A DNA stretch of 64,000 nucleotides. It comes from Squalus acanthias (lineage: Eukaryota). A model generated the notes under the pieces. The model was not told the origin of the DNA and ran no database searches. It saw nothing but the letters and a program-made list of their open reading frames with translations. The stretch spans positions 128,342,001 to 128,406,000 of the forward strand of contig CM059431.1 of the NCBI GenBank assembly GCA_030390025.1, in the 5' to 3' direction. Of the stretch, positions 45,754-63,840 are shown one piece after another. Both the position numbers and the translations under genes were made by a program. Within the stretch, counting starts at the first letter, position 1. The number at the start of each line of letters is the position of its first letter.

Positions 45754-47940
45754 TCACAACTTACTCCTAACTACTCTATCTAGTTCTAAGTTATTGGCTC
45801 GTTTCCCTATCCTTTTGATTAGGTGCCGCCGCAGGTAGCATATCAGTATTACCAAGACTATCAGTATGGATCCTTGGCCTATTACTAAGAATAAGCTCAG
45901 CATTCTTAACCAGGGAGTTTGGCTAACATTGTAGACTGATTCATACCACTTCCGTTCCCCTAGCTTTTGGGTTTCTGATTCCATCTCCTCATTCTGCTGG
46001 GTCATTTTGACTAGGTGAGTTTCCGAGGTGCTCGTCCTGTCTAAGATCAATTTGAGGTTTAAGGACAATGGGTGGCCGAACTGGGTTACGGCCTCGAGCG
46101 CTTCGTTCTGCATGGAGATGTTAACTCTGAGTTCTGTGATGTTGTGAGCTGAGGCGGGGAGTAGGACCTGACCCCCTATTATGGCTGTTTGGGTCGGCTT
46201 AAAGCAGAATGTAGGGCTCTGGATGTGACATTCCTGATTCCCATGTTTCATCGTCCCGGCATTGGTGGTGACACAGTACTTCCCCATCTGCAGGTACGTA
46301 TATTTTGCGCTACTGGCCCCCACCGTTGAACGCTTATGTCGCACGTGGGCGACTCTGGGTCCAGGGTGAAGCCACAGGCTGGCTTTCCCGGGTTCCTTAC
46401 ATCACATCGGCACAAATAGGCCCCTCCTCGATCGGAGCAGCACTCGGTGTTTGGGCTATCCCACGTTTGATCTTGGTTGATCAGAATCGGGTGGGGAGTT
46501 AGTTTCATATGATGTGTGGATATCCTGGTCCATGGTCCCTATGGATTCCACTTTAAACACTTCCCATTCGCCTTCTGCCTGTAGGTGAGGTAGCCACAAG
46601 ACCACCGGTACTACACTTCCCTGTACTCCTTCCCTTTAACTAGCTAAGATAACCCGTGCTGCCGGGCTCCTCTGGTATAATTGTGCCCAGCGAACCATCT
46701 ACTAATCAGGCTGTCGTTTATGAAGGATGGAATTTGATTGTTTCCTATATCTCTAAGTCCGTTTGTTATCTGACTAAGCATATAACTCCCATACGCAGAA
46801 CAGACTATAGCCCGGGAAATGTTCTTCTCTGCCTCCCCCTTATCCTGGATGATTTTATTAACTGTTTTTTCTATTTGCTGGATCACCTTTACCTCGCCTC
46901 TGTCAAGAGATTCTGGGATAGTTCTTGGATCACGTCCTGCCCTTCTTTGTTTGTTCCTAATAGAATCCCTTTTAGTTGCATCCTCATTGCCACATTGTGT
47001 TCCCACATGTTCTCTACATTGACCCGATTCCAGGCAGCTGTCCCTGCCGCTGCCCCTATTCCGATCCACTCCCCCAATCCCCTTCTCGTTCTTTGTTTCC
47101 TCCTGGCTTTGGTCATGTTTGCTTTCGCTATTACCTCTTTCTCGTCCCACGATCCCCAGTTATCCTGTGCCTGGTTCTTTGCTAAGAAATCTCTTACCGT
47201 TTTTCCCACAAGCTGATTGAAGTAGGTACGGTATCCTGTTGGGCACAGCCTCCGCGGGAGAGGGATGTTCCTGAAGTGGAGTAGAACGGGCACTATCTCA
47301 TAACTCACATGGTTGTGCAGCTTCTTATAGGTGCAGGTGACCACTTACCCATTCCTTGTCCCTTTCTCTAGCAGTGGGCATTTCCTCACTCTGGTGCTGC
47401 TTGTTTCCTGGCTCATGCCTCTTTCCTCTTTATGTATCTCAATCTGTTGGACCCTTCCCTGCCTGCTACCTGGATGGTCCAGGGGGCCTGCATTAAGACA
47501 TCCTATCATCCCTCTGTGCCTGTTGCTCAGCTTTGGCCAGTTTAGTGTGTCCTGGTTTTGCCCAGGTAGGGGATTCCGACGCTCTTTGGGGTGATCCTAA
47601 CTGAATCCTTGAACCCGAATCCCAGGTCTCCATCGCTCCCCCTTCCCAGTTGGAGTCTTGGTGTTACACTAATTTGATCTTTAATACACTGACATGCTAC
47701 CTTTAGCGCCGCCCCCTCCTGTGATCGTACTACAGGGGGTCCGTCGTCATAGGGCCTCTCCCAGCCGCAGTAATTACAATAGAAAGTCATATTACACCCA
47801 TCCTCGGGAATAGTCCAAGTGTTGTCCTCTGTGGACTCGTTAGTTGGTCGTAGGACCAATCCTTGTCTCACGATGATGTTCATCGGATGGATGATACCGA
47901 TGATTGCTGCCACTTCTATCAGAATCTTGAGTGGAGCCAT
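45754..47940 (-). pseudogene. env: env of retrovirus 1: signal peptide, Ig-like domain, furin site, fusion peptide, Cys-rich region, TM (frameshifted)
   Basis: MAPLKILIEVAAIIGII; RKQRTRR|GLGEWIGIGAAAGTAAW; ECCSDRGGAYLCRCD...CGF...C; WLRMLSLFLVIGQGSILIVLVILICYL; lies between integrase and PPT/LTR. Confidence 0.85.
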
Positions 47941-47976
47941 CCTGTGTCGTGACCTACAACAGAAAATGTGGAGTAT

Positions 47977-49056
47977 TTATTCTTTCACAGTTTTCAACTG
48001 ATTAATGTGGTACCACCTGGGCCTCTTCCTCCCCCTCTTATCCGGGATCTGGACTAAGTTTACCGCGGGGCTGGCTCGGTCTGTGATCGGGCAGGGTCCC
48101 ACCCATTTAGGTTCGAAGGCATGTTCCCTTCTCAGGTAATTTAGGACCATAACCACATCCCCAATCTGATACTCGAAAGGCCGAACCTTTTTGTCAAAGT
48201 ACTTTTTTATCTGTTGTTGGCTTTTCCCGATCTGCTGGGCCAGGAACTCATTTGTTTTCTGAATATGTTCTATCATTGATTCTAACCACCTCTGGTTGGC
48301 CGCCCCCTGCAGGAGTGGGGTGAGAGATGGAGTGAGGAGGTGGGCCAGCGTTCTCATTAGACGCCCCGTCATAGCCTGGAGAGGTGAAATACCCCTGGTG
48401 ATATGTGGGGTTGCTCTCATCGCCATCAGGCACATGGGCAGCATGTTAGCCCATTGTGTGGGGTGGTCTGTACAAAACTTGTTCAACATAGTTTTAAGGG
48501 TTGGGTTCCCCCTTTCCACCACTCCTGATGATTGTGGGTGGTGTGCTATGTGTAGTTTGTGGGGGATTTCCAGGAGTCTCTGGAGTTCAGTGAAGACTTT
48601 CCCGGTGAACTGTGAACCTTGGTCGCTATCCAGCTGGATCAGGATTCCCCACCCGCAGACCACCTCGCACAATAGCAGTTTTGCTGCCGTGAGAGCGGTG
48701 TTGACTCTGCAGGGGAAGGCCTCAATCCATTTTGTGAATTTGTCTATCAGGACCAGACAGTACTTGTAGCCCAGGGGCGCCGTGGCTAGAGGGCCTATAA
48801 AGTCAATGTGGACATGTGTCCAAGGCCTGTTTGGTGGTGGCGGCCGTCGTAGTAGTGCCCTATTAGAGTGATTGCCTGGGTTATGCTGAAGACACGCAAG
48901 ACACCTGTGGACCCTGTTTTCAAAATCCTCGTTACAACCGGGGTACCAGGCCGTGGTGGACAGTTTCCCCAGGGTGATCGTTGCAGAATAATGCCCCCCC
49001 ACCGGGTGGGCGTGTAGTAGATCGAACAGTTCATCTCCCATAGATGGGGGAAACAC
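47977..49056 (-). CDS. pol: Retroviral integrase of retrovirus 1 (uninterrupted 359 aa; rest of pol missing)
   Basis: H-x5-H...CLAC zinc finger; HIDFIGP, DSDQG and VVERGN DDE triad; KWVGP motif. Confidence 0.92.
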   Translation of the reverse strand: MFPPSMGDELFDLLHAHPVGGHYSATITLGKLSTTAWYPGCNEDFENRVHRCLACLQHNPGNHSNRALLRRPPPPNRPWTHVHIDFIGPLATAPLGYKYCLVLIDKFTKWIEAFPCRVNTALTAAKLLLCEVVCGWGILIQLDSDQGSQFTGKVFTELQRLLEIPHKLHIAHHPQSSGVVERGNPTLKTMLNKFCTDHPTQWANMLPMCLMAMRATPHITRGISPLQAMTGRLMRTLAHLLTPSLTPLLQGAANQRWLESMIEHIQKTNEFLAQQIGKSQQQIKKYFDKKVRPFEYQIGDVVMVLNYLRREHAFEPKWVGPCPITDRASPAVNLVQIPDKRGRKRPRWYHINQLKTVKE

Positions 49057-52000
49057 AGGTTACGGAATAACCTGTCCAGGCACCGGAAGCATGATTTCAG
49101 CACTCCTATTGTCCACTCCACCATTTGGCGCATGCACACGTATGCACAGTTGTACTGCTCCTGTGCTGCACTATTGATCCTGCAGTAGGGTGTCATCAGC
49201 CAAATCTTTAGCGGGTAGGCCTTGTCACCTAAGATCCATCGAGAGCCTTGCTGCACTTTGGAGAAGGCATCGTGTAAGTTTGAGTACCAAACAACGAAGG
49301 CATCATGAACACTTCCCCAGTGATCTACAGTGACAGTCATGATCCACAGTTGGGCATTGCAAAGGATCATCACATTGAACAAATGGTACCATTTCCTGTT
49401 GATGTATGTCACAGGTGTATCATTGGGTGTCTTCAATGGCACGTGGGTTCCACCGACAGCCCCCTGTACTTTGGGGAAGCTAGTAATCTGTAGAATGCGA
49501 TGGACTTCCCCCTTTGCCACACCGGGGACATGTTTCAGGTGAGTGAGTCAGATGCCCTGTGGAATATGGCATCCGTGACCTGTTGAATGCAGACTCTCGC
49601 AGTGCTGTGGATGATGTTGCACATGTCACTGTTGCCTTCCTGAAATGACCCGCATGCATAAAATTTGAGGCCTGTAGTTACTCTCAAGGCCACTGATAAA
49701 GCCCACCGGGAGGTAGAACATGGCTGAAGGTCCTCTTGTAATAATTCACTTAGGCAGCCGATTGCTTCCTTACTAAAGCATAGCCTCCTTGCACACAGTT
49801 CTTCCGATATCATCTTGAAAGACATCCTCTCACTGTAGACTCTCTGAGGTGGATAATAGTTCCTCCTGGTGAGCCTTCAGGCATATGCCTAACTCTCCAT
49901 CGTTGATCCCTGCGTTCCCCTTCCATGCTGTCCAGTAAAAGCAGAAGCACTGGAATGCCAAGTAGATAAGGCATTTTTATCCCTCTTCTGTGTTTCACAG
50001 GCCTCTTTAAGCACTTGCAGGACTGTTGACGGCACAGTAATTTGAAAACATATGATCTTCCTGCAAAGAATCCCACAGCTGAAATGCTCCCCTTGTGTGA
50101 ATCCAGGCTCAAGTAACATATGAGATCATAAATCACGCTCTTGACAGGGTACTTGCATCACTTCAGACCAGCCCTAAATATCTGTGGCAGGTTTAGTTTA
50201 TATTTATGGCACAAATTCAGCAACTTATTGACATTCAGTGAACGGTGAGACTGAGGGCGAGCTGCCGTTTTCATGAAGCTAACAGCGGATTGGCGCAAAT
50301 CGTCTAGCAAATTGTGGCCACAAGTTACTGCATGATTGGTAACGTTACATCGGTCAAACGTAATACAACCGGTACAATTTCCTATCGCATGTTGGAAAAC
50401 ACCAGCTGGTATTTTGACTGGGTGACCAAGCTGCTCTTTGGAGCCATTGTTACCTCGGGACATGTATTGTGCTATCCCTCTAGTGTCCTTTGCTCACTTT
50501 TATGTTTACCCTAGTAGTGTTCATGTTGGCACGATTCAGATCCTGACACTGGTATCGTCCTTCATGGCCTTGGTGTACATTTGGGAACCTCAGTTCCCAT
50601 CTGGGGCACTCGGGGTCCCCTAATTTTGTTATATCCATGTATGGCATTCCGACAAGCCTTGTTGATTTATGACGATCCTTCGAAACGCCTAAGTCTGTCT
50701 CATTTATTTTCAACAGATTCTCGCTCTTTCCTTCTTTTCCTGCTGTGACCCAAGCTGCTTTCTGCTTTTCTCTCCTTTCCACAAGCAGCCATTGTCCACT
50801 TTCCTTCCTTTGGTATGTGTATCGAAGAATCGGGGATATCCATTTCTGACTATCACAGTTCCATTTTCTATTTCTCTCCCTTCAGCTTCCATTGTCACAC
50901 TTGGGCTTGGTATGTCTCCGCTCACCAGGACGAGTTGCACAATTACCATCATTATTATAGTTATTAATTTGACAGACCTTCTCCACCATGTCCTTCCCTT
51001 TTCCATGGTGGCTTTTCCTAAAATCAAGAGAGTACCGTTACCCATCAGTTCTGTCTCTGGTACTGTGGACTGTCTTAAGATGATTGATATGATGCCAGCT
51101 GGTTAACTTTCTGTTCTTTTTGCCTGGATACTGGATTAGGTATACGGCTGCACTTGCTTTGTCCATAATGAGAAATGGTCCTTTCCATTTAGGTACAAAT
51201 GCATGTGCTTTTGTCCCATAGTGCAGTACCATTACCGTGTCTCCAATTTCATACTCAAATGGTCTGACCTTTTTGTCAAAATATTTCTTAATCTTTCTTT
51301 TTGAATGGCCTAATTTTTTGGCCACAAATTCATTTCTGTTTCGTACATGCTCAATCACTTTTGTCAACCATACTTCTCCTACTGTTCCCTGCATGGTGAG
51401 AGTTATCGATGCTTGTGGCACTAACAGGTGCCCTAAGCTTCTCAGTCAGCATCCTGACATTGCTTGATAAGAAGAATATTTTGGTGGTGCTGTGGGGTGT
51501 TTCTCTAATTGCCATTAAGCACATAGCTAACATAATTGGCCATTTGTTCGGGTTTTCGGAACAAAACTTTTTACTATTGTTTTCAAAGTCTGATTCCCGC
51601 TGTCCACTACCTCTGAAGATTGTGAATGATGCCCTTGGCCTTTTGTAAATCTTTAAAAATTCTTCTGATAAATGCGCCCCTGATTGCTATCAATCTGTAA
51701 CGGCATTCTCCACCTTGACATCACCTCACACAGTAAGTACGTGCTGCAGTGATGGCGGTATTACTTTGACATGGGAAGTCCTCCGCAATTTGTAAATTTG
51801 TCGATGATAACTAAATAGTACTGGTACCCCAACCCAGATTTAAGGAGGGGACCAATAACGTCAAACTGGATTTGAGTCCAGTCTGACGACGGTGCAGATT
51901 TTGGTAAAACTCTGTTAGTTAATGTGCATAGGAGGGTTACTTTGCAAGCAGGGTAAGTATGACTGGCATAACTGAGTATTATCCCACAGCATGTTAGGCC

Positions 52001-52479
52001 ATCCTACCACATGGACAATCTTATCGATGATAGTGGAGACAGAGTAATGTCCCACTGCAAAATGCAAGTGGAATAGGTGGAAAAATTCACTTGCCCATTC
52101 TGGTGCGATGGATAGCACAGGGAGTTTTCCCTTATCTGGTTTGAGTCAGAGTAGTCCCTTCCATCCACTCGGTTGGGGATGGAAGGGGGCAACCTTGGTC
52201 ATGTCATGCCATGACTATTTCATAGGGCTCCCATTGCTGTAGGTCATTTACGGTTATTTGATTGACAATAGTAATCACACTACTCACAGTGGTGTTCGCA
52301 GCAGGTTCCCAGTGGGTACCATCCGGTGCTGCATGCTTGGCTTGCTTATCGGCAAGTGAGTTTGGCTGGGAGTGGGCCTTTACCTTCCCCACATAGCAAG
52401 GGGTAGTGCAACTACTGAGAGCCAACCAAAAATGCTGTATTAGGCTGGCTAATGGTTTACCATCCGTAGAACAAAATAT

Positions 52480-53940
52480 GATTTTCCCAAACTCTCCCAA
52501 TTCAGGAATAATTCCCTTAGATTGGAAAATTGCCAACTTCATTCCACTATTTAAGAAGGGCACGAGAGATAAACTAGGAATTTATAGGCCTATTAGTCTA
52601 ATGTCTGTTGTGGGGAAGTTACTAGAATTTATTATTAGGGATAAAGTGACTGAGCGCTCAGACAAATGTAAACTGATAGGAGAGAGTCAGCATGGATTTG
52701 TAAAGAGTAAGTCATGTCTAACAAATCTAGTTGAATTTGGTGAGATACCTAATGAGGTACATAAGGGAGTGTTTATAATTGTTATTTATTTGGACTTCCA
52801 GAAGATAAGGTTCCACATAAGAAACTGTTAACAAAAATGAGAGCACATGGAATTGGAGGCAACCTATTGACATGGGTAGGGAATTGATTAGGAGATAGGA
52901 GACAGAGAGTAGGGATAATGGGTATGTATTCAAATTGGCAGGATGTGACTAGTGGTATCCCCAGGGATCTGTACTTGGGCCTCAGCTTTTCACTACATGT
53001 ATAAATGACATAGATGAAGGAATAGAGAGCTGTATATCCAAGTTTGCTGATGACACCAAGTTAGGTGCACGGTAAATAGTGTAGATGGCAGCAGAAAGTT
53101 GCAAAGGGACACTGCTAGATTAAGTGAATAGGCAAAACTGTAACAGATGGAGTTCAGTGTGGCGAAATGTTAGGTCATCCACTTTGGACCTAAGAAAGAT
53201 AGATCAGTGTATTTTCTAAATGGTGAGAAGCTAGGAACTGTGGAGGAGCAGAGAGATTTAGGGGTCCAAGTACAGAATTCACTAAAATATAGTGGACAGG
53301 TACTCAGAATAATTAAAAAGGCTAATGGAATGTTGGCCTTTATCTCAAGTGGGCTGGAATGCAAAGGGTGGAAGTTATGTTACAGTTATATAAAGCTCTG
53401 GTTAGACCCCATTTAGAGTATTGTGTTCAGTTCTTGGCACCGCAACTCAGGAATGATATATTGGCTCTGGAGGGAGTGCAGCGAAGATTCACCAGAATAA
53501 TACCAGGACTGAAGTGTTAAATTATGAGACAGGTTGCATAGACTAGACTTGTATTCCCTTGAATATAGAAGATTAAGGGGTGATCTAATTGAGGTGTTTA
53601 TAATTAAAGCAGTTGATAGGGTAGACAGGGAGAAACTATTTCCTCTGGTGGGGGAGTCCAGAACAAGGAGGCATAAGCTTAAAATTACAGCTAGGCCATT
53701 TAGTGGTGATGTAAGGAAGCACTTCTTCACAGAAAGGGTAGTGGAACTCTCTCCCCCAAAAAGCTGTTGAGGTTTATTGAAAATTTTAAAACTAAGATTG
53801 ATAGATTTTTCTTAGGTAAGGATGTTAAGGGTTTTGGAACCAAGGCGGGTAGATAGAGTTAAGATACAGATCAGCCATGATCTAATTGAATGGCAAAACA
53901 GGCTCAAGGGACAGAATAGCTGACTCCTGTTCCTATGTTT
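52480..53940 (+). mobile_element. CR1 RT fragment inserted in the RNase H of virus 2
   Basis: DWKIAN..PLFKKG, QHGF, FADD; CR1 3'UTR. Confidence 0.9.
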
Positions 53941-57404: not shown

Positions 57405-60400
57405 TTAGTGTACAAAATTAAAGCACATGGGATTGGGGGTAATATACTGGCACGGATTGAAAATTGGTTAACAGACAGGAAACAGAGAGTAGGAATAAAT
57501 GGGTCTTTATCGGGGTGGCAGGCAGTGACTAGTGGGGTACCGCAGGGATCAGTGCTTGGGCCCCAGCTATTCACAATATATATCAATGATTTGGATGAGG
57601 GAACCAAATGTAATATTTCCAAGTTTGCTGACGACATAAAACTAGGTGGGATTGTGAGTTGTGAGGAGGATGCAAAGAGGCTTCAAAGCGATTTAGACAA
57701 GTTGGGCTCGATTTTGCCATTGGGGTGGGCTGGGGCATGTCAGGTGGTTTTCGTGTCAGGACCCCGACTCCGATGTGAAGTGGGAAAAAAGTGCGATTTT
57801 GCCCTAATTGGGCACTTGATGTCCAGTGTGTGGGAACACCTGGCCCAATAAGTCTTTTCATACAGAAAGTCGCCTCCGATGACGTCATCAATGCTGCTGG
57901 ATTTAAGGCCTGCAAGCCGCCTTGCTTCTTCTGGAGACTTTAAACTTTATGCCCATTGTTGTGATCACTTCATTCAGCAACTATGTCCACCAGTAGACCA
58001 AAGTGTGCTCCAAGGTTCGATGAGGCCTCCCTCCAAGCTCTGGTGGAGGGAGCAAGCTCAAATAAAGAGGTGCTCTTCCCTTCCTCAGGGAGGAAAAAGC
58101 CTCCCCAACAGACTAAAGCTGTGCGGCTGCAAGTGGCCCAGGAGGTCAACTCAATCTCTGTGTGCCACAGAACCTGGCTGCAGTGCAGGAAGAGGTTTCA
58201 TGACCTTCTCCGCACAAGAAAAGTGAGTATGACTTTCTCATCACCCTCAATCAGATCCCCATCACCTCTCCTCACCAGCACTCTGCTTTGCCAACCTCTT
58301 CCTCCACATCCCACTTGACACTTACATCCCTGCACACTTACCCATTCTCTCTCTCCCTATGGTCACATTCACTTAACTATTTGACCATGCAGCCCTCACA
58401 CTCCCTATCACTGTGATGCAATGACAACAACTTACAACACACAGGGAGGGCTCTTTGTCTCCTTCTAAGCATCTATGCTATGGATTCTCTACACTCACTC
58501 CTTCATTCTCACTCAAACTCCACTTGTGTCCCTCATTGCAGGAAAAGAGTGCCCACAATAAGAGGGAAAGAGCGAGGACAGGAGGAGGGCCACCCTCAGT
58601 AGCCCAGCTCACCATCTCGGAGGAGGCGGCCCTGGAAATCGCCGGTGTCGAGGAAGATTCGCAAGTGGAGGACGGACAGGCGGGCGCATCACAGCAAGCT
58701 GGTGACAGAATAGTTTGGTATCTCTTTCATTGACATTGCATGAGTGACTGATAATGATTCTGGTGCTCTAACAGATTGACTTATGATCATCTGCACAATT
58801 CAATGTGCATGCAACCTTTACCTCACATCTCCAACTCTTTCCTTTACTCCCCCACAGGACCATCGAGAGCCCGCATCCCCACTGTCCAGGAGGAACAGCC
58901 TGAGCCTGAAGACTCCTCAGAGGAAGCTGCAACCTCTGAGGGTGCAGCGTCAGCAGAATTCAATGCACCCAGCACCTGCGCAGACACTCACACCTCGGTG
59001 GGACCTTCGCGAGATAGAGTAGTGTTGTCACCTGGTGTATCACAGCTCACAAGTGAGCATCAGCAGATGGTGGAGATAGGGACGGCAGTGGAGAGTCCTC
59101 GTCGGAGGGCGCAGGACTCTCCCAGCTCGGCTCAGCTGCATGTCGACCCTGTGCCTCCGGGTTCATCCAGAAGGAGAGCGGTGCTTGAACTCCAGGAACA
59201 GGTGCAGGAGTCTCTGGCAGGTTTTGTCTCCAGGGTCGCTGCGAGTGTGGAGCGAATGGAGGAGTCCATCGCGAACATGAGCAGAGCCTTTGTGGAGGCA
59301 TTGGCATATCACCACGGAAAGGATGGCAACCTCCGTGGAAAGGATGGCTACAGTAGAGGAGACGACGGCTACAGCCATGGAGGAGCTAAGTCGCCAGAGT
59401 GTTGAAAACATGGTCATTGTTCAGAATAGACTGACATCTCTTGAGGAGCGATGGTCAGCTATTGAGCATAGAAACCAGACCTTCATGGAAGTCCTCTGGA
59501 GTGGGACTTCCAGTGCAGAAACGGGTCCTCATGGCCCCCCTGAAGTGCAGCAAGGTGCTTTCAAGCCACTTGCTAGCTCTGAAGTGGGGCTGACCCATGA
59601 GAGGGATGTTGGTGGCAGACAACAAGGAAGTGGGGGCTCCTCTCCAAGCGCTCACATGACCATGCCAGTGCAAAGCCCTCGGTCAGAGCCGCACCAGAGT
59701 CCTCCCCCAACTGAGATGGGCGTCTCAGCCCCTGCACAGCCGTAGGAGCAGCAGACTGTTGCCGAGCCCTCACAGGCTCGCAACCCCAGAGGATGCCCGC
59801 CAAAGGTGTTGAGACAGGAACAGCAAGAAAGTGAGCAAGGGACCTCCACATCTGCTGAAGCCACAGGGGAAGCACCACGTAGGAGATCGTGTAAGAGGAA
59901 GATAAAGCACAAGTAGTCACAAGAGTAGTCACTTGGGTGTTCTGTTGTATTGTTTTTTGACAAGCCATCCTTGTAATGTTATGATAAACAGATTTGATGG
60001 CAAACTGTTGAAGTTGTGGCCTCTGTCATCCCGCAAATGGGACTTCCACATTGAGGGCTTAGGGCGACTTGCAATTGTCAGTATGGTGGTCAGAGTGATA
60101 GGAATACGCAGGTTCTTGTCCATTGTCGATGCTCTGGTAAGAAGGTGCGAGGCAAAAGTGTTTAATTGTACAGGCTAAGCAAATCTGGCCAACATGAGTA
60201 TGTCCCTTGCATCCCGGGCAGCAATGTGTTCGCGCGCTGTCACCTTCTGGCCTGTGTAGCTTCAGGTGGGTGAGCAGCAGCTTGGCACTGCTGTTGTTGC
60301 TGCTGCTGTTGGTGGTGCTGTTGTTCATGGTTCTGCTGCTGCCACGGCTGATCTTCGTCCGAATCTGATGTCCAGGACGAAAGGAAATAAATGGTTCCCA

Positions 60401-62751: not shown

Positions 62752-63485
62752 TAGACTCATAGAATCATAGAATGGTTACAGCACAGTAGGAGGCCATTCA
62801 GCCCGTCGAGCCCGTGCCGGCTCTCTGCAAGAGCAATTCGGCTAGTCCCACACCCCCGCCCTTTTCCGTAGCCTTGCAATTTTTTTTCCTTCAGGTACAA
62901 TTCCCTTTTGAAAGCCATGATTGAATCTGCCTCCACTACCCTTTCAGGCAGTGCATTCCAGATCATAACCACTCGCAGTGTAAATTTTTTTTTCCTCATG
63001 TCGCCTTTGGATCTTCTGCCAATCACCTTAAATCTGTGTCCTCTGGTTCTCGACCCTTCCACCAATGGGAACAGTTTATCTCTATCTACTCTGTCTAGAC
63101 CCCTCACGATTTTGAACACATCTATCAAATCTCCTCTCAATCTTCTCTGCTCCAAGGAGAACAACCCCAGCTTCTCCAATCTATCCACATAACTGAAGTC
63201 CCTCATCCCTGGAACCATTCTTGTAAATCTTTCCTGCACCCTCTCTAAGGCCTTCACATCCTTCCTAAAATGTGGTGCCCAGAATTGGACACAATACTCC
63301 AGTTGTGGCTGAACCAGTGTTTTATACAGGTTCCTCATAACTTCCTTGCTTTTGTATTCTATGCCTCTATTTATAAAGCCCAGGAACCCGTATGCTTTTT
63401 TAACCGCTTTCTCAACCTGCCCTGCCACCTTCAACGATTTGTGCACATATACCCCCGGTCTCTCTGTTCCTGCACCCTCTTTCCA
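62752..63485 (-). mobile_element. CR1 3' fragment
   Basis: ORF 62757-63488; catagaat tail. Confidence 0.9.
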
Positions 63486-63840
63486 CATAATAGGCTTGTC
63501 AGCAAAGTTGAAGCCTATGGAATAAAAGGGACATTGGCAGCATGGATACGAAATTGGCTAAGTGACAGGAAACAGAGAGTAGTGGTGAACGGTTGTTTTT
63601 CAGACTGGAGGAAGATATACAGTGTTCCCCAGGGACCGGTACTAGGAGCACTGCTTTTCTTAATATTTTCAAGACTGAGAGTGATAGATTTTTGAGCACT
63701 AAGGGAATCAAGAGATATGGGGATAGGACGGGAAAGTGGACTTGATATAAATGTTCAGCCATGATCTTACTAATGGCGAAGCAAGCTCGAAAGGTCATAT
63801 GGCCTACTGCTGCTCCTATTTTTTTATGTTCTTATGTTCT
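63480..63840 (+). mobile_element. Internally deleted CR1 fragment
   Basis: WIRNWLSDRKQRVVV..PQG joined directly to the 3'UTR and tail. Confidence 0.75.

Follow-up and report, generated by a model that had tools for sequence, protein, structure and literature searches.

The question raised by a 64,000-nucleotide (nt) stretch of the Squalus acanthias genome (assembly GCA_030390025.1, contig CM059431.1, positions 128,342,001 to 128,406,000; hereafter the window, whose own coordinates are used throughout) is whether the envelope protein (Env) of the endogenous retroviruses (ERVs) lying in it carries an immunoglobulin (Ig)-like domain ahead of a fusogen resembling the paramyxovirus fusion protein F, and what such a domain might have served for. 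The minus strand of the window holds fragments of two related ERVs, virus 1 and virus 2, which belong as decayed proviruses to a single, abundant ERV group of sharks; both env genes are dead, being interrupted by frameshifts and stops. The original prediction, made from the letters of the sequence, had reported an Ig-like region at the front of both Envs, and our analysis confirms this observation. We also consider it probable, if well short of certain, that these proviruses once encoded a class I Env in one open reading frame (ORF), with the Ig-like domain acting as an exposed receptor-binding module.

Three-frame translation recovers the three peptides on which the prediction was built at their predicted places on the minus strand, namely, WELRFPNVHQGHEGRYQC (50599-50546) in virus 2 and VVRSQEGAALKVAC (47733-47692) and LNWPKLSNRHRGMIGC (47545-47498) in virus 1. 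The pattern of the E and F strands, written as L-x-[FW]-P-x-[LV]-x3-H-x-G-x-[YI]-x-C, has two matches in the window translated in all six frames, each within an env gene, and none in any of 100 block shuffles of the window. When five or six env lineages of the genome are aligned, the virus 1 and virus 2 motifs occupy the same columns, with P, H, and G nearly invariant, which makes the two motifs of the window homologous beyond mere similarity.

The decayed env gene of virus 1 (45754..47940, minus strand, like all env and integrase features given below) runs from an ATG at 47940 to a stop at 45754 and is broken by frameshifts and stops into four frame pieces, as read from the ORF list and the three-frame translation; tblastn against more intact copies assigns them to frames -2, -1, -3, and -2. 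Its hydrophobic N-terminus (47878..47940), a presumed signal peptide read from the translation with no predictor, is followed by a Cys-rich motif, C-x5-C-x2-C (47761..47805), which the alignments place immediately before the Ig-like domain and which is common to lineages L071, L034, and P0002. The first part of the Ig-like domain (47560..47739) comprises the A' and B strands, a C strand without Trp, and a VGIPY motif, and it has a Cys pair at 47694-47686 when aligned to the modelled domain of P0004, a 739-amino-acid (aa) protein of Chiloscyllium punctatum automatically named "Ig-like domain-containing protein" in UniRef. The second part (47432..47563) comprises the E strand, the H-x-G-x-I-x-C F strand (47545-47498), and the G strand. 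The latter peptide had been noted to lie in a frame missing from the ORF track, which reflects a frameshift within the domain, at 47557..47563, where the two frames meet right after "...PYLG" and where intact relatives show uninterrupted reading. A profile from which the rows of the window were left out sets both pieces end to end, the upstream one matching its positions 18-111 (E 4.5e-42) and the downstream one its positions 109-170 (E 7e-28). The single TAA said to separate this frame from the furin site was found in-frame at 47345..47347, between the Ig-like domain and the F2-like segment. The stretch that follows (47030..47344) begins with YEIVPV, continues into a predicted helix, and ends with the furin-type site RRKQRTRR (47104-47081) and a Gly/Ala-rich fusion peptide (47080-47030), a layout that is invariant in the Env alignment.

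Virus 2 retains roughly the first 230 codons of env, spread over three frames, and its env homology stops near 50337. Frame A (50710..51045) contains the start, with an ATG at 51045 and a hydrophobic signal-like stretch at 50967-50917. Frame B (50480..50881) contains the Ig-like domain, with the C-strand Trp at 50752-50750, a VGMPY motif, the E/F motif at 50599-50546, and a G strand reaching to about 50495; it matches profile positions 77-144 (E 3.5e-9). The third frame (50325..50471) holds the linker, a TAG stop (50384-50382), and the start of the F2-like segment, EIVPVV (50381-50364). The domain is broken by a frameshift located between 50785 and 50752. Of the strands originally read in virus 2, the E/F pattern stands, while the putative B-strand Cys in GRKVDNGC (50808-50785) aligns weakly (E 0.046 among 4 pieces).

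Whether the Ig-like region belongs to Env at all is answered by the more intact genomic copies. In these, one frame runs through the signal peptide, a short Cys-rich cap, the Ig-like region, a linker, "...NGLVVTRT...YEIVPV...", an R-x-K/R-R site, and a Gly/Ala-rich fusion peptide, with open lengths of 445 aa in L043, L044, and L047, 464 aa in L071, and 784 aa in L078, where the frame of the L034/L078 locus goes on through the membrane anchor. This layout is also that of the annotated shark proteins P0004, P0011, and P0014, which are 739-754 aa long. Among the stop-free segments with the E/F motif, 33 are distinct (L034 and L078 being the same genomic place in this count), and 17 of these also reach the fusion peptide in-frame, 153-165 residues downstream, so that the Ig-like region is part of Env and not a separate gene; the expectation that the Ig and F regions form one ORF in intact copies is borne out in these segments. 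The alternative, that the Ig-like region was a separate accessory ORF upstream of Env ending before EIVPV, draws on the stops of virus 2 (TAG) and of L010 (TAA), which lie just before EIVPV at exactly one and the same codon. However, that codon is TAT in L012, L020, and L024, CAG in L004, and a Tyr codon in other lineages, which indicates that the two stops arose by independent decay; the 17 segments with a frame open through to the fusion peptide speak against a separate ORF as well, as does the downstream Env, which has no start codon or signal peptide of its own. We therefore regard a separate accessory ORF as barely credible. A conserved stop or read-through at "...R*E(I/T)VPV" was considered too and was discarded, TAT or CAG being present in four of the six copies examined.

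As to the kind of protein, L034/L078, P0004, P0011, and P0014 display a signal peptide, a polybasic site directly before the fusion peptide, two heptad repeats (recognized by eye), and a C-terminal transmembrane (TM) segment, and the succession R-x-[KR]-R then G-L-[GA]-E-W-x-G-I-G-A is invariant in the Env alignment. By this layout, the Env of these elements would be classed as a viral fusion glycoprotein of class I.

The Ig character of the N-terminal domain is best seen in P0004. AlphaFold2 (AF2), supplied with residues 8-184 of this protein and an alignment of 22 natural sequences, returned a model of one helix followed by nine strands (mean predicted local distance difference test [pLDDT] 72.0, predicted template modelling score [pTM] 0.62), in which the B-strand Cys, a Trp 11-13 residues on, and the F-strand Cys occupy the usual Ig places. 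A Foldseek search of the PDB with this model gave 54 hits at E<=1e-3, of which all those listed are Ig domains (best, KIT D1-3, 2.8e-5), and with VIA-align, run against 48,161 chains, the highest Z was 10.7, for VEGFR2 D3 (root mean square deviation 2.3 over 103 residues), the best 50 rows being all Ig domains and covering model residues 36-163. The claim of an Ig-like domain is thus upheld by a homologue whose model matches only Ig domains; a sandwich of two beta sheets is predicted for P0004 and would extend to the copies of the window, to which it is carried over by alignment.

Sequence searches point the same way. A profile of the N-terminal region, run against 1.84 billion representatives, had 10 hits at E<=1e-3, comprising three true homologues (P0001, P0002, and P0004), five multi-Ig host proteins matched at the E/F strands, and two bacterial repeat proteins matched outside the E/F region. 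Against PDB sequences, all 26 profile hits at E<=10 were proteins of the Ig superfamily (IgSF), with contactin-2 the best (E 0.0053), and six of nine hits of P0004 were antibody heavy-chain variable (VH) domains, aligned to residues 68-145. The domain of L043, a member of the virus 1 family, is related to that of P0004 at BLASTP E 1e-5 (29% identity over 104 residues). Language-model look-alikes of P0004 are Ig domains as well, with scores under 0.9, which we take as a lead only. P0004, the virus 1 family, L071, and P0002 have Cys at the canonical positions of both the B and the F strand; in virus 2 the F-strand Cys is present, and the B-strand Cys is weakly aligned. The C-strand Trp, 10-16 residues after the B-strand Cys, is present in P0004, P0011, P0014, L034, and virus 2. 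In every lineage the F strand reads H-x-G-x-[YI]-x-[CW], with H and G nearly invariant, versus the canonical D-x-G-x-Y-x-C; the His variant is also found in the host multi-Ig proteins matched by the profile.

The evidence for the Ig fold is nevertheless uneven, and several results weigh against it. No Pfam Ig family passes its cut-off in any copy tested: on the window copies, I-set reached E 0.027 (15 bits versus a cut-off of 23.7) and V-set E 0.14, both on the virus 2 piece only, and no Pfam Ig family was listed for L034, L043, L010, L052, P0004, P0011, L071, or L073. The suggested comparison with V-set and I-set thus yielded weak matches to the virus 2 piece, all of them below the gathering threshold. 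Virus 2 and P0004 are not significantly similar in pairwise comparison (E 0.26), and virus 2 is linked to the domain family solely through the profile (E 3.5e-9) and L010. The first AF2 model, of L043 with 11 sequences, was poor (mean pLDDT 40.9), being all-beta over residues 48-171, and the other four models of the P0004 region scored 55-67. Language-model look-alikes of the L043 domain are non-Ig, the best being DDE_Tnp_4 at 0.86, which is noise. Finally, the L034 lineage has Trp at the position of the F-strand Cys, and Phe or Leu stands at the position of the C-strand Trp in both the virus 1 family and L071.

Such results might suggest that the Ig resemblance is a chance pattern in a beta-rich, Cys-containing stretch on which AF2 imposed the fold, given that every sequence-based score against Ig families is subthreshold, that the L043 model is poor, and that, according to the tool's own note, middling VIA Z values are common among beta sandwiches. 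The Z of 10.7, however, exceeds the 7-8 given by the tool as typical without a clear match, and the 50 best VIA rows are Ig domains across the whole domain. Three independent sequence searches, moreover, return IgSF proteins almost exclusively, and the automatic UniRef name of P0004 concurs. We deem a chance resemblance quite improbable and retain the Ig-like fold.

A separate question is where the domain came from. We infer an origin by capture of a host IgSF exon, and P0004 bears the full IgSF signature at canonical spacing (B-strand Cys, Trp 11-13 residues on, and an H-x-G-x-I-x-C F strand), which is typical of cellular IgSF and argues against an old viral beta sandwich, native to this Env lineage, that converged on Ig features. 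The latter explanation, which we hold to be possible though on the unlikely side, is favored by an identity of 8-21% to every solved Ig domain, by the profile-matched host proteins aligning at the E/F strands only, and by the presence of the domain in all five or six divergent lineages seen, which means that any capture would be ancient. No host donor gene was identified among the profile, PDB sequence, and structure matches, which likewise suits convergence; the question of capture is described as equally open for the IgV-like receptor-binding domain RBD-C of gamma-type Env in the available text of a recent preprint (bioRxiv 10.1101/2024.03.17.585361).

Within the group the Ig-like domain is old and evolved under some purifying selection, and no other folded part of Env varies as much. 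Lineages share on average 31% identity in the Ig-like part, 40% in the F2 core, and 50% in the fusion peptide plus heptad repeat A (HRA). The ratio of nonsynonymous to synonymous substitution rates (dN/dS) of the Ig-like part is 0.39-0.58 between sublineages over 116 codons, for pairs that are not independent and without a significance test, and its dN is 0.14-0.15 versus 0.04-0.08 in the other segments, the 23-codon L061 row being left out. The env start follows the integrase stop by 36 nt, which leaves no room for a second glycoprotein gene between pol and env. High variability, a dN/dS below 1, and the lack of room for a second glycoprotein gene fit an exposed, functional, and fast-evolving module such as a receptor binder.

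In the mechanism that we propose, env would encode a single class I fusion glycoprotein that furin cleaves into two products. The N-terminal product, of about 300 residues, would consist, from front to back, of a short cap, one I/V-set-like IgSF domain, a linker, and a strand-plus-helix segment resembling F2. The C-terminal product, of about 430 residues and F1-sized, would carry the fusion peptide, two heptad repeats (the first of them long) with a Cys-rich globular part between them, and the membrane anchor. The Ig-like domain would be the exposed receptor-binding module, in the role of a surface subunit (SU) or receptor-binding domain (RBD), so that one protein both attaches and fuses. Receptor binding and the triggering of fusion by this domain are what we infer from the arrangement.

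The domain could also be a genuine Ig-like fold that binds no receptor, serving instead as an apical shield or cap that stabilizes the prefusion trimer, or offering a surface that modulates immunity or acts as a decoy, with attachment located elsewhere in Env or non-specific. The F protein of pneumoviruses can attach without a dedicated domain, which lends this possibility some weight. In its favor, too, a search of viral structures gave nine hits at E<=1e-3, mostly Ig-like immune-evasion proteins of poxviruses, herpesviruses, and adenoviruses, although at 9-17% identity these matches reflect the common Ig fold only. A model annotated in the great white shark (P0002/P0012/P0013), reduced to the leader, the Cys-rich motif, and the Ig part, would suit a secreted or decoy form but is possibly just a truncated ERV fragment. 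In the class I fusogens described in the available text of the cited sources, the variable N-terminal module is the one that binds the receptor, as in gamma-type RBD-C (bioRxiv 10.1101/2024.03.17.585361), the foamy virus RBD, and coronavirus S1 (PMC11468914). We think a shield or decoy function unlikely, without dismissing it, and keep the receptor-binding module as the preferred function.

The great white shark model just mentioned is the Carcharodon carcharias gene LOC121280168, a RefSeq model with three isoforms of 180, 193, and 253 aa. Of such an Env it holds no more than the leader, the Cys-rich motif, and the Ig-like part, and it could be either what is left of a truncated ERV or an Ig-only product that was co-opted.

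The fusogen part of Env is probably F-like, a judgment based on its architecture together with weak sequence hits. The Pfam family PF00523 was matched in only 3 of the 12 distinct pieces covering the region (E 0.026, 0.032/0.036, and 1.1), all of the L034 lineage; these hits are subthreshold and colinear with profile positions 248-425. The description of an "F-like fusogen" is thus sustained by the order of the parts, while its sequence counterpart is limited to subthreshold hits in one lineage. Matches to F0 chains in the PDB, obtained with a profile of 8 Envs (4 chains, E 0.16-0.2), were rejected as proof of an F core, since they aligned to an engineered coiled-coil tag and are spurious.

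The label "Loki", which appears in the original prediction, is doubtful, because the supplement of the lokiretrovirus survey, in the part available, lists none of six cartilaginous-fish genomes as positive, including Scyliorhinus torazame and C. punctatum (PMC7947760), the source species of P0011 and P0004. In reverse-transcriptase phylogeny, lokiretroviruses are the sister group of all other retroviruses. The integrase of the shark family has its best solved-structure match in the prototype foamy virus (PFV) integrase (E 1.2e-31), followed by Ty3; this match does not decide the phylogenetic place of the elements.

Further copies were sought in the whole genome (3.7 Gb in 3882 contigs), where searches with window pieces gave 10, 31, and 133 matches, and a search with P0004 gave 11,726 first-look candidates. 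The 133 matches were obtained with the virus 1 N-terminus, and some of them cluster on C3 and C14. A host multigene family was ruled out for them, pol/integrase lying directly upstream in all eight loci examined (L042-L044, L046, L047, L049, L051, and L052), so that these virus 1-family copies are proviruses and not members of a host gene family. At least eight virus 1-family copies (L042-L047, L049, and L050) lie within 2 Mb at C3:116.3-118.4 Mb, and the five with a readable integrase start (L042, L043, L044, L047, and L049) have one integrase frameshift in common, which looks like segmental duplication of a provirus-bearing region and not like separate integrations. For the virus 2 lineage (loci L002-L008), all five further places examined share the two-frame layout of the window copy, the frames overlapping by about 30 codons inside the Ig-like domain (window 50710-50881) and the copies being 52-80% identical in protein; the shared layout suggests a frameshift in a common source that spread without a working env.

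Outside S. acanthias, the nearest database proteins of these Envs are all from sharks. Word-index searches for further homologues returned P0004 and P0011 only, and with so few homologues nothing can be said on the Env of bony-fish or amphibian lokiretroviruses. The open Env ORFs of 739-754 aa in C. punctatum, S. torazame, and Heterodontus francisci, which represent three shark orders, are 85-88% identical to one another, while the P0004/P0011/P0014 lineage is present in the S. acanthias genome only as several copies with stops, at 66-80% identity. The 85-88% identity across three orders could reflect domestication, transfer between orders, or slow evolution in sharks.

As regards the surroundings of the two env genes, the integrase ORF of virus 1 (47977..49056; Pfam rve, E 2.5e-12; Integrase_H2C2, E 6e-10) ends 36 nt upstream of the env ATG, and the provirus is truncated 5' of about 49060. 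The integrase of virus 2 is reduced to a tail at 51421-51038. Virus 2, truncated at its 3' side, and virus 1, truncated at its 5' side, are separated by a Harbinger/PIF-type transposase (region 48795-50136; ORF 49520-48795, minus strand; DDE_Tnp_4, E 5.5e-27). The pol region of virus 2 is interrupted by reverse-transcriptase fragments resembling long interspersed nuclear elements (LINEs), at 52406-53770 (plus), 57408-57851 (plus), and 62757-63488 (minus), which recur in the window as the direct repeats D3, D5, and D7. No pair of long terminal repeats flanking virus 1 or virus 2 stood out within 38000-64000. Farther away, the segment 36000-39000 is a G+C-rich tandem array (GC 0.62) with strong strand skew (GC skew -0.70), in which repeats recur every 9-15 nt in 45 registers.

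Taken as a whole, the elements might represent an undescribed and very abundant shark retroviral lineage, missed by the lokiretrovirus screen, in which a fusogen like paramyxovirus F had a host IgSF domain grafted to its N-terminus, giving a one-protein machine for attachment and fusion; we advance this full reading tentatively, as possible but not yet probable. If the grafting is true, it would be a third independent way of giving a minimal F scaffold a receptor binder, beside the inserted RBD of foamy viruses and the N-terminal domains of coronaviruses, and the 85-88% identical open copies in three shark orders would point to recent spread between orders or to domestication of Env. The finding draws attention to a cartilaginous-fish ERV group where, in the part of the survey available, the published lokiretrovirus screen reported such elements absent (PMC7947760).

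The shark Env has the layout of the F proteins of paramyxoviruses and pneumoviruses, from the F2-like segment and the furin site through the Gly/Ala-rich fusion peptide and the long HRA to the Cys-rich globular part, heptad repeat B (HRB), and the TM segment. We know of no such F protein with an N-terminal Ig-like domain ahead of F2. In these viruses attachment is the task of a second protein (HN, H, or G), and F has an Ig-like domain of its own, domain II, located in F1.

In the available text of Wang and Han (2020, PMC7947760), the lokiretrovirus Env is modelled with a signal peptide, an RXKR-type site, a fusion peptide, a coiled coil, and a TM anchor, and it is similar to paramyxovirus and pneumovirus F0 (PF00523). 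The shark Env shares with it the F0-style layout within a retrovirus-like element but differs in that its PF00523 similarity is subthreshold and in that the lokiretrovirus model of that text names no Ig-like or receptor-binding domain, so the domain is not one already annotated there. The words "immunoglobulin" and "Ig-like" do not occur in the available portions of four lokiretrovirus sources (the main text of PMC7947760, PMC9040795, PMC13709493, and 10.1101/2023.10.26.564294), and a literature search whose ranking by number of terms could hide a paper surfaced nothing on an Ig-like domain in such an Env. The statement that this architecture had not been described needs to be narrowed to an Env of this kind, since receptor modules on F-like scaffolds (PMC11468914) and IgV-like RBDs (bioRxiv 10.1101/2024.03.17.585361) are in print in the texts available, and UniRef had already named P0004 Ig-like by automatic means.

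A close parallel in design is the foamy virus Env, which, in the available text of Fernandez et al. (2024, PMC11468914), combines a core resembling paramyxovirus and pneumovirus F with a receptor-binding module of its own and no separate attachment protein. Its RBD has its own fold and, with a long leader peptide ahead of it, forms an insertion that separates the F2-like part from the furin site (PMC11468914), whereas in the shark Env an Ig-like module precedes the F2-like segment; the shark order is signal peptide, cap, Ig-like domain, linker, F2-like segment, and furin site, so that an RBD insertion of the foamy type is not what is found. The size of the shark Env, 739-784 aa, is a further difference. 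Coronavirus spikes, "class Ib" in the same source, place receptor-binding modules at the N-terminus of an F-like fusion scaffold (PMC11468914), but these modules have other folds, the spike is much larger than the shark Env, and the likeness is one of description only. If the core of the shark Env is truly F-like, it would provide a natural example of the F fold as a minimal scaffold for bolted-on receptor modules, in the sense of the part of that work available (PMC11468914).

For the module itself, close counterparts in design are the IgV-like domains of orthoretroviral Envs. According to the available text of the preprint cited above, receptor binding by gamma-type Env falls to RBD-C, an IgV-like domain at the N-terminal end of its surface subunit, and one host capture is documented, that of a SIRP-like IgV RBD (bioRxiv 10.1101/2024.03.17.585361). 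The shark domain bears on the host-gene origin of IgV-like receptor-binding domains discussed there. Compared by description, those IgV-like RBDs sit on gamma- or alpha-type Envs with a short TM subunit, in contrast to the C-terminal subunit of the shark Env, which is F1-sized at about 430 aa. An Ig-like receptor-binding design is thus known in principle from other viruses and is not described for such an Env, and the shark case probably combines two known ideas, an IgSF-type module at the N-terminus of Env and an F-like core behind it.

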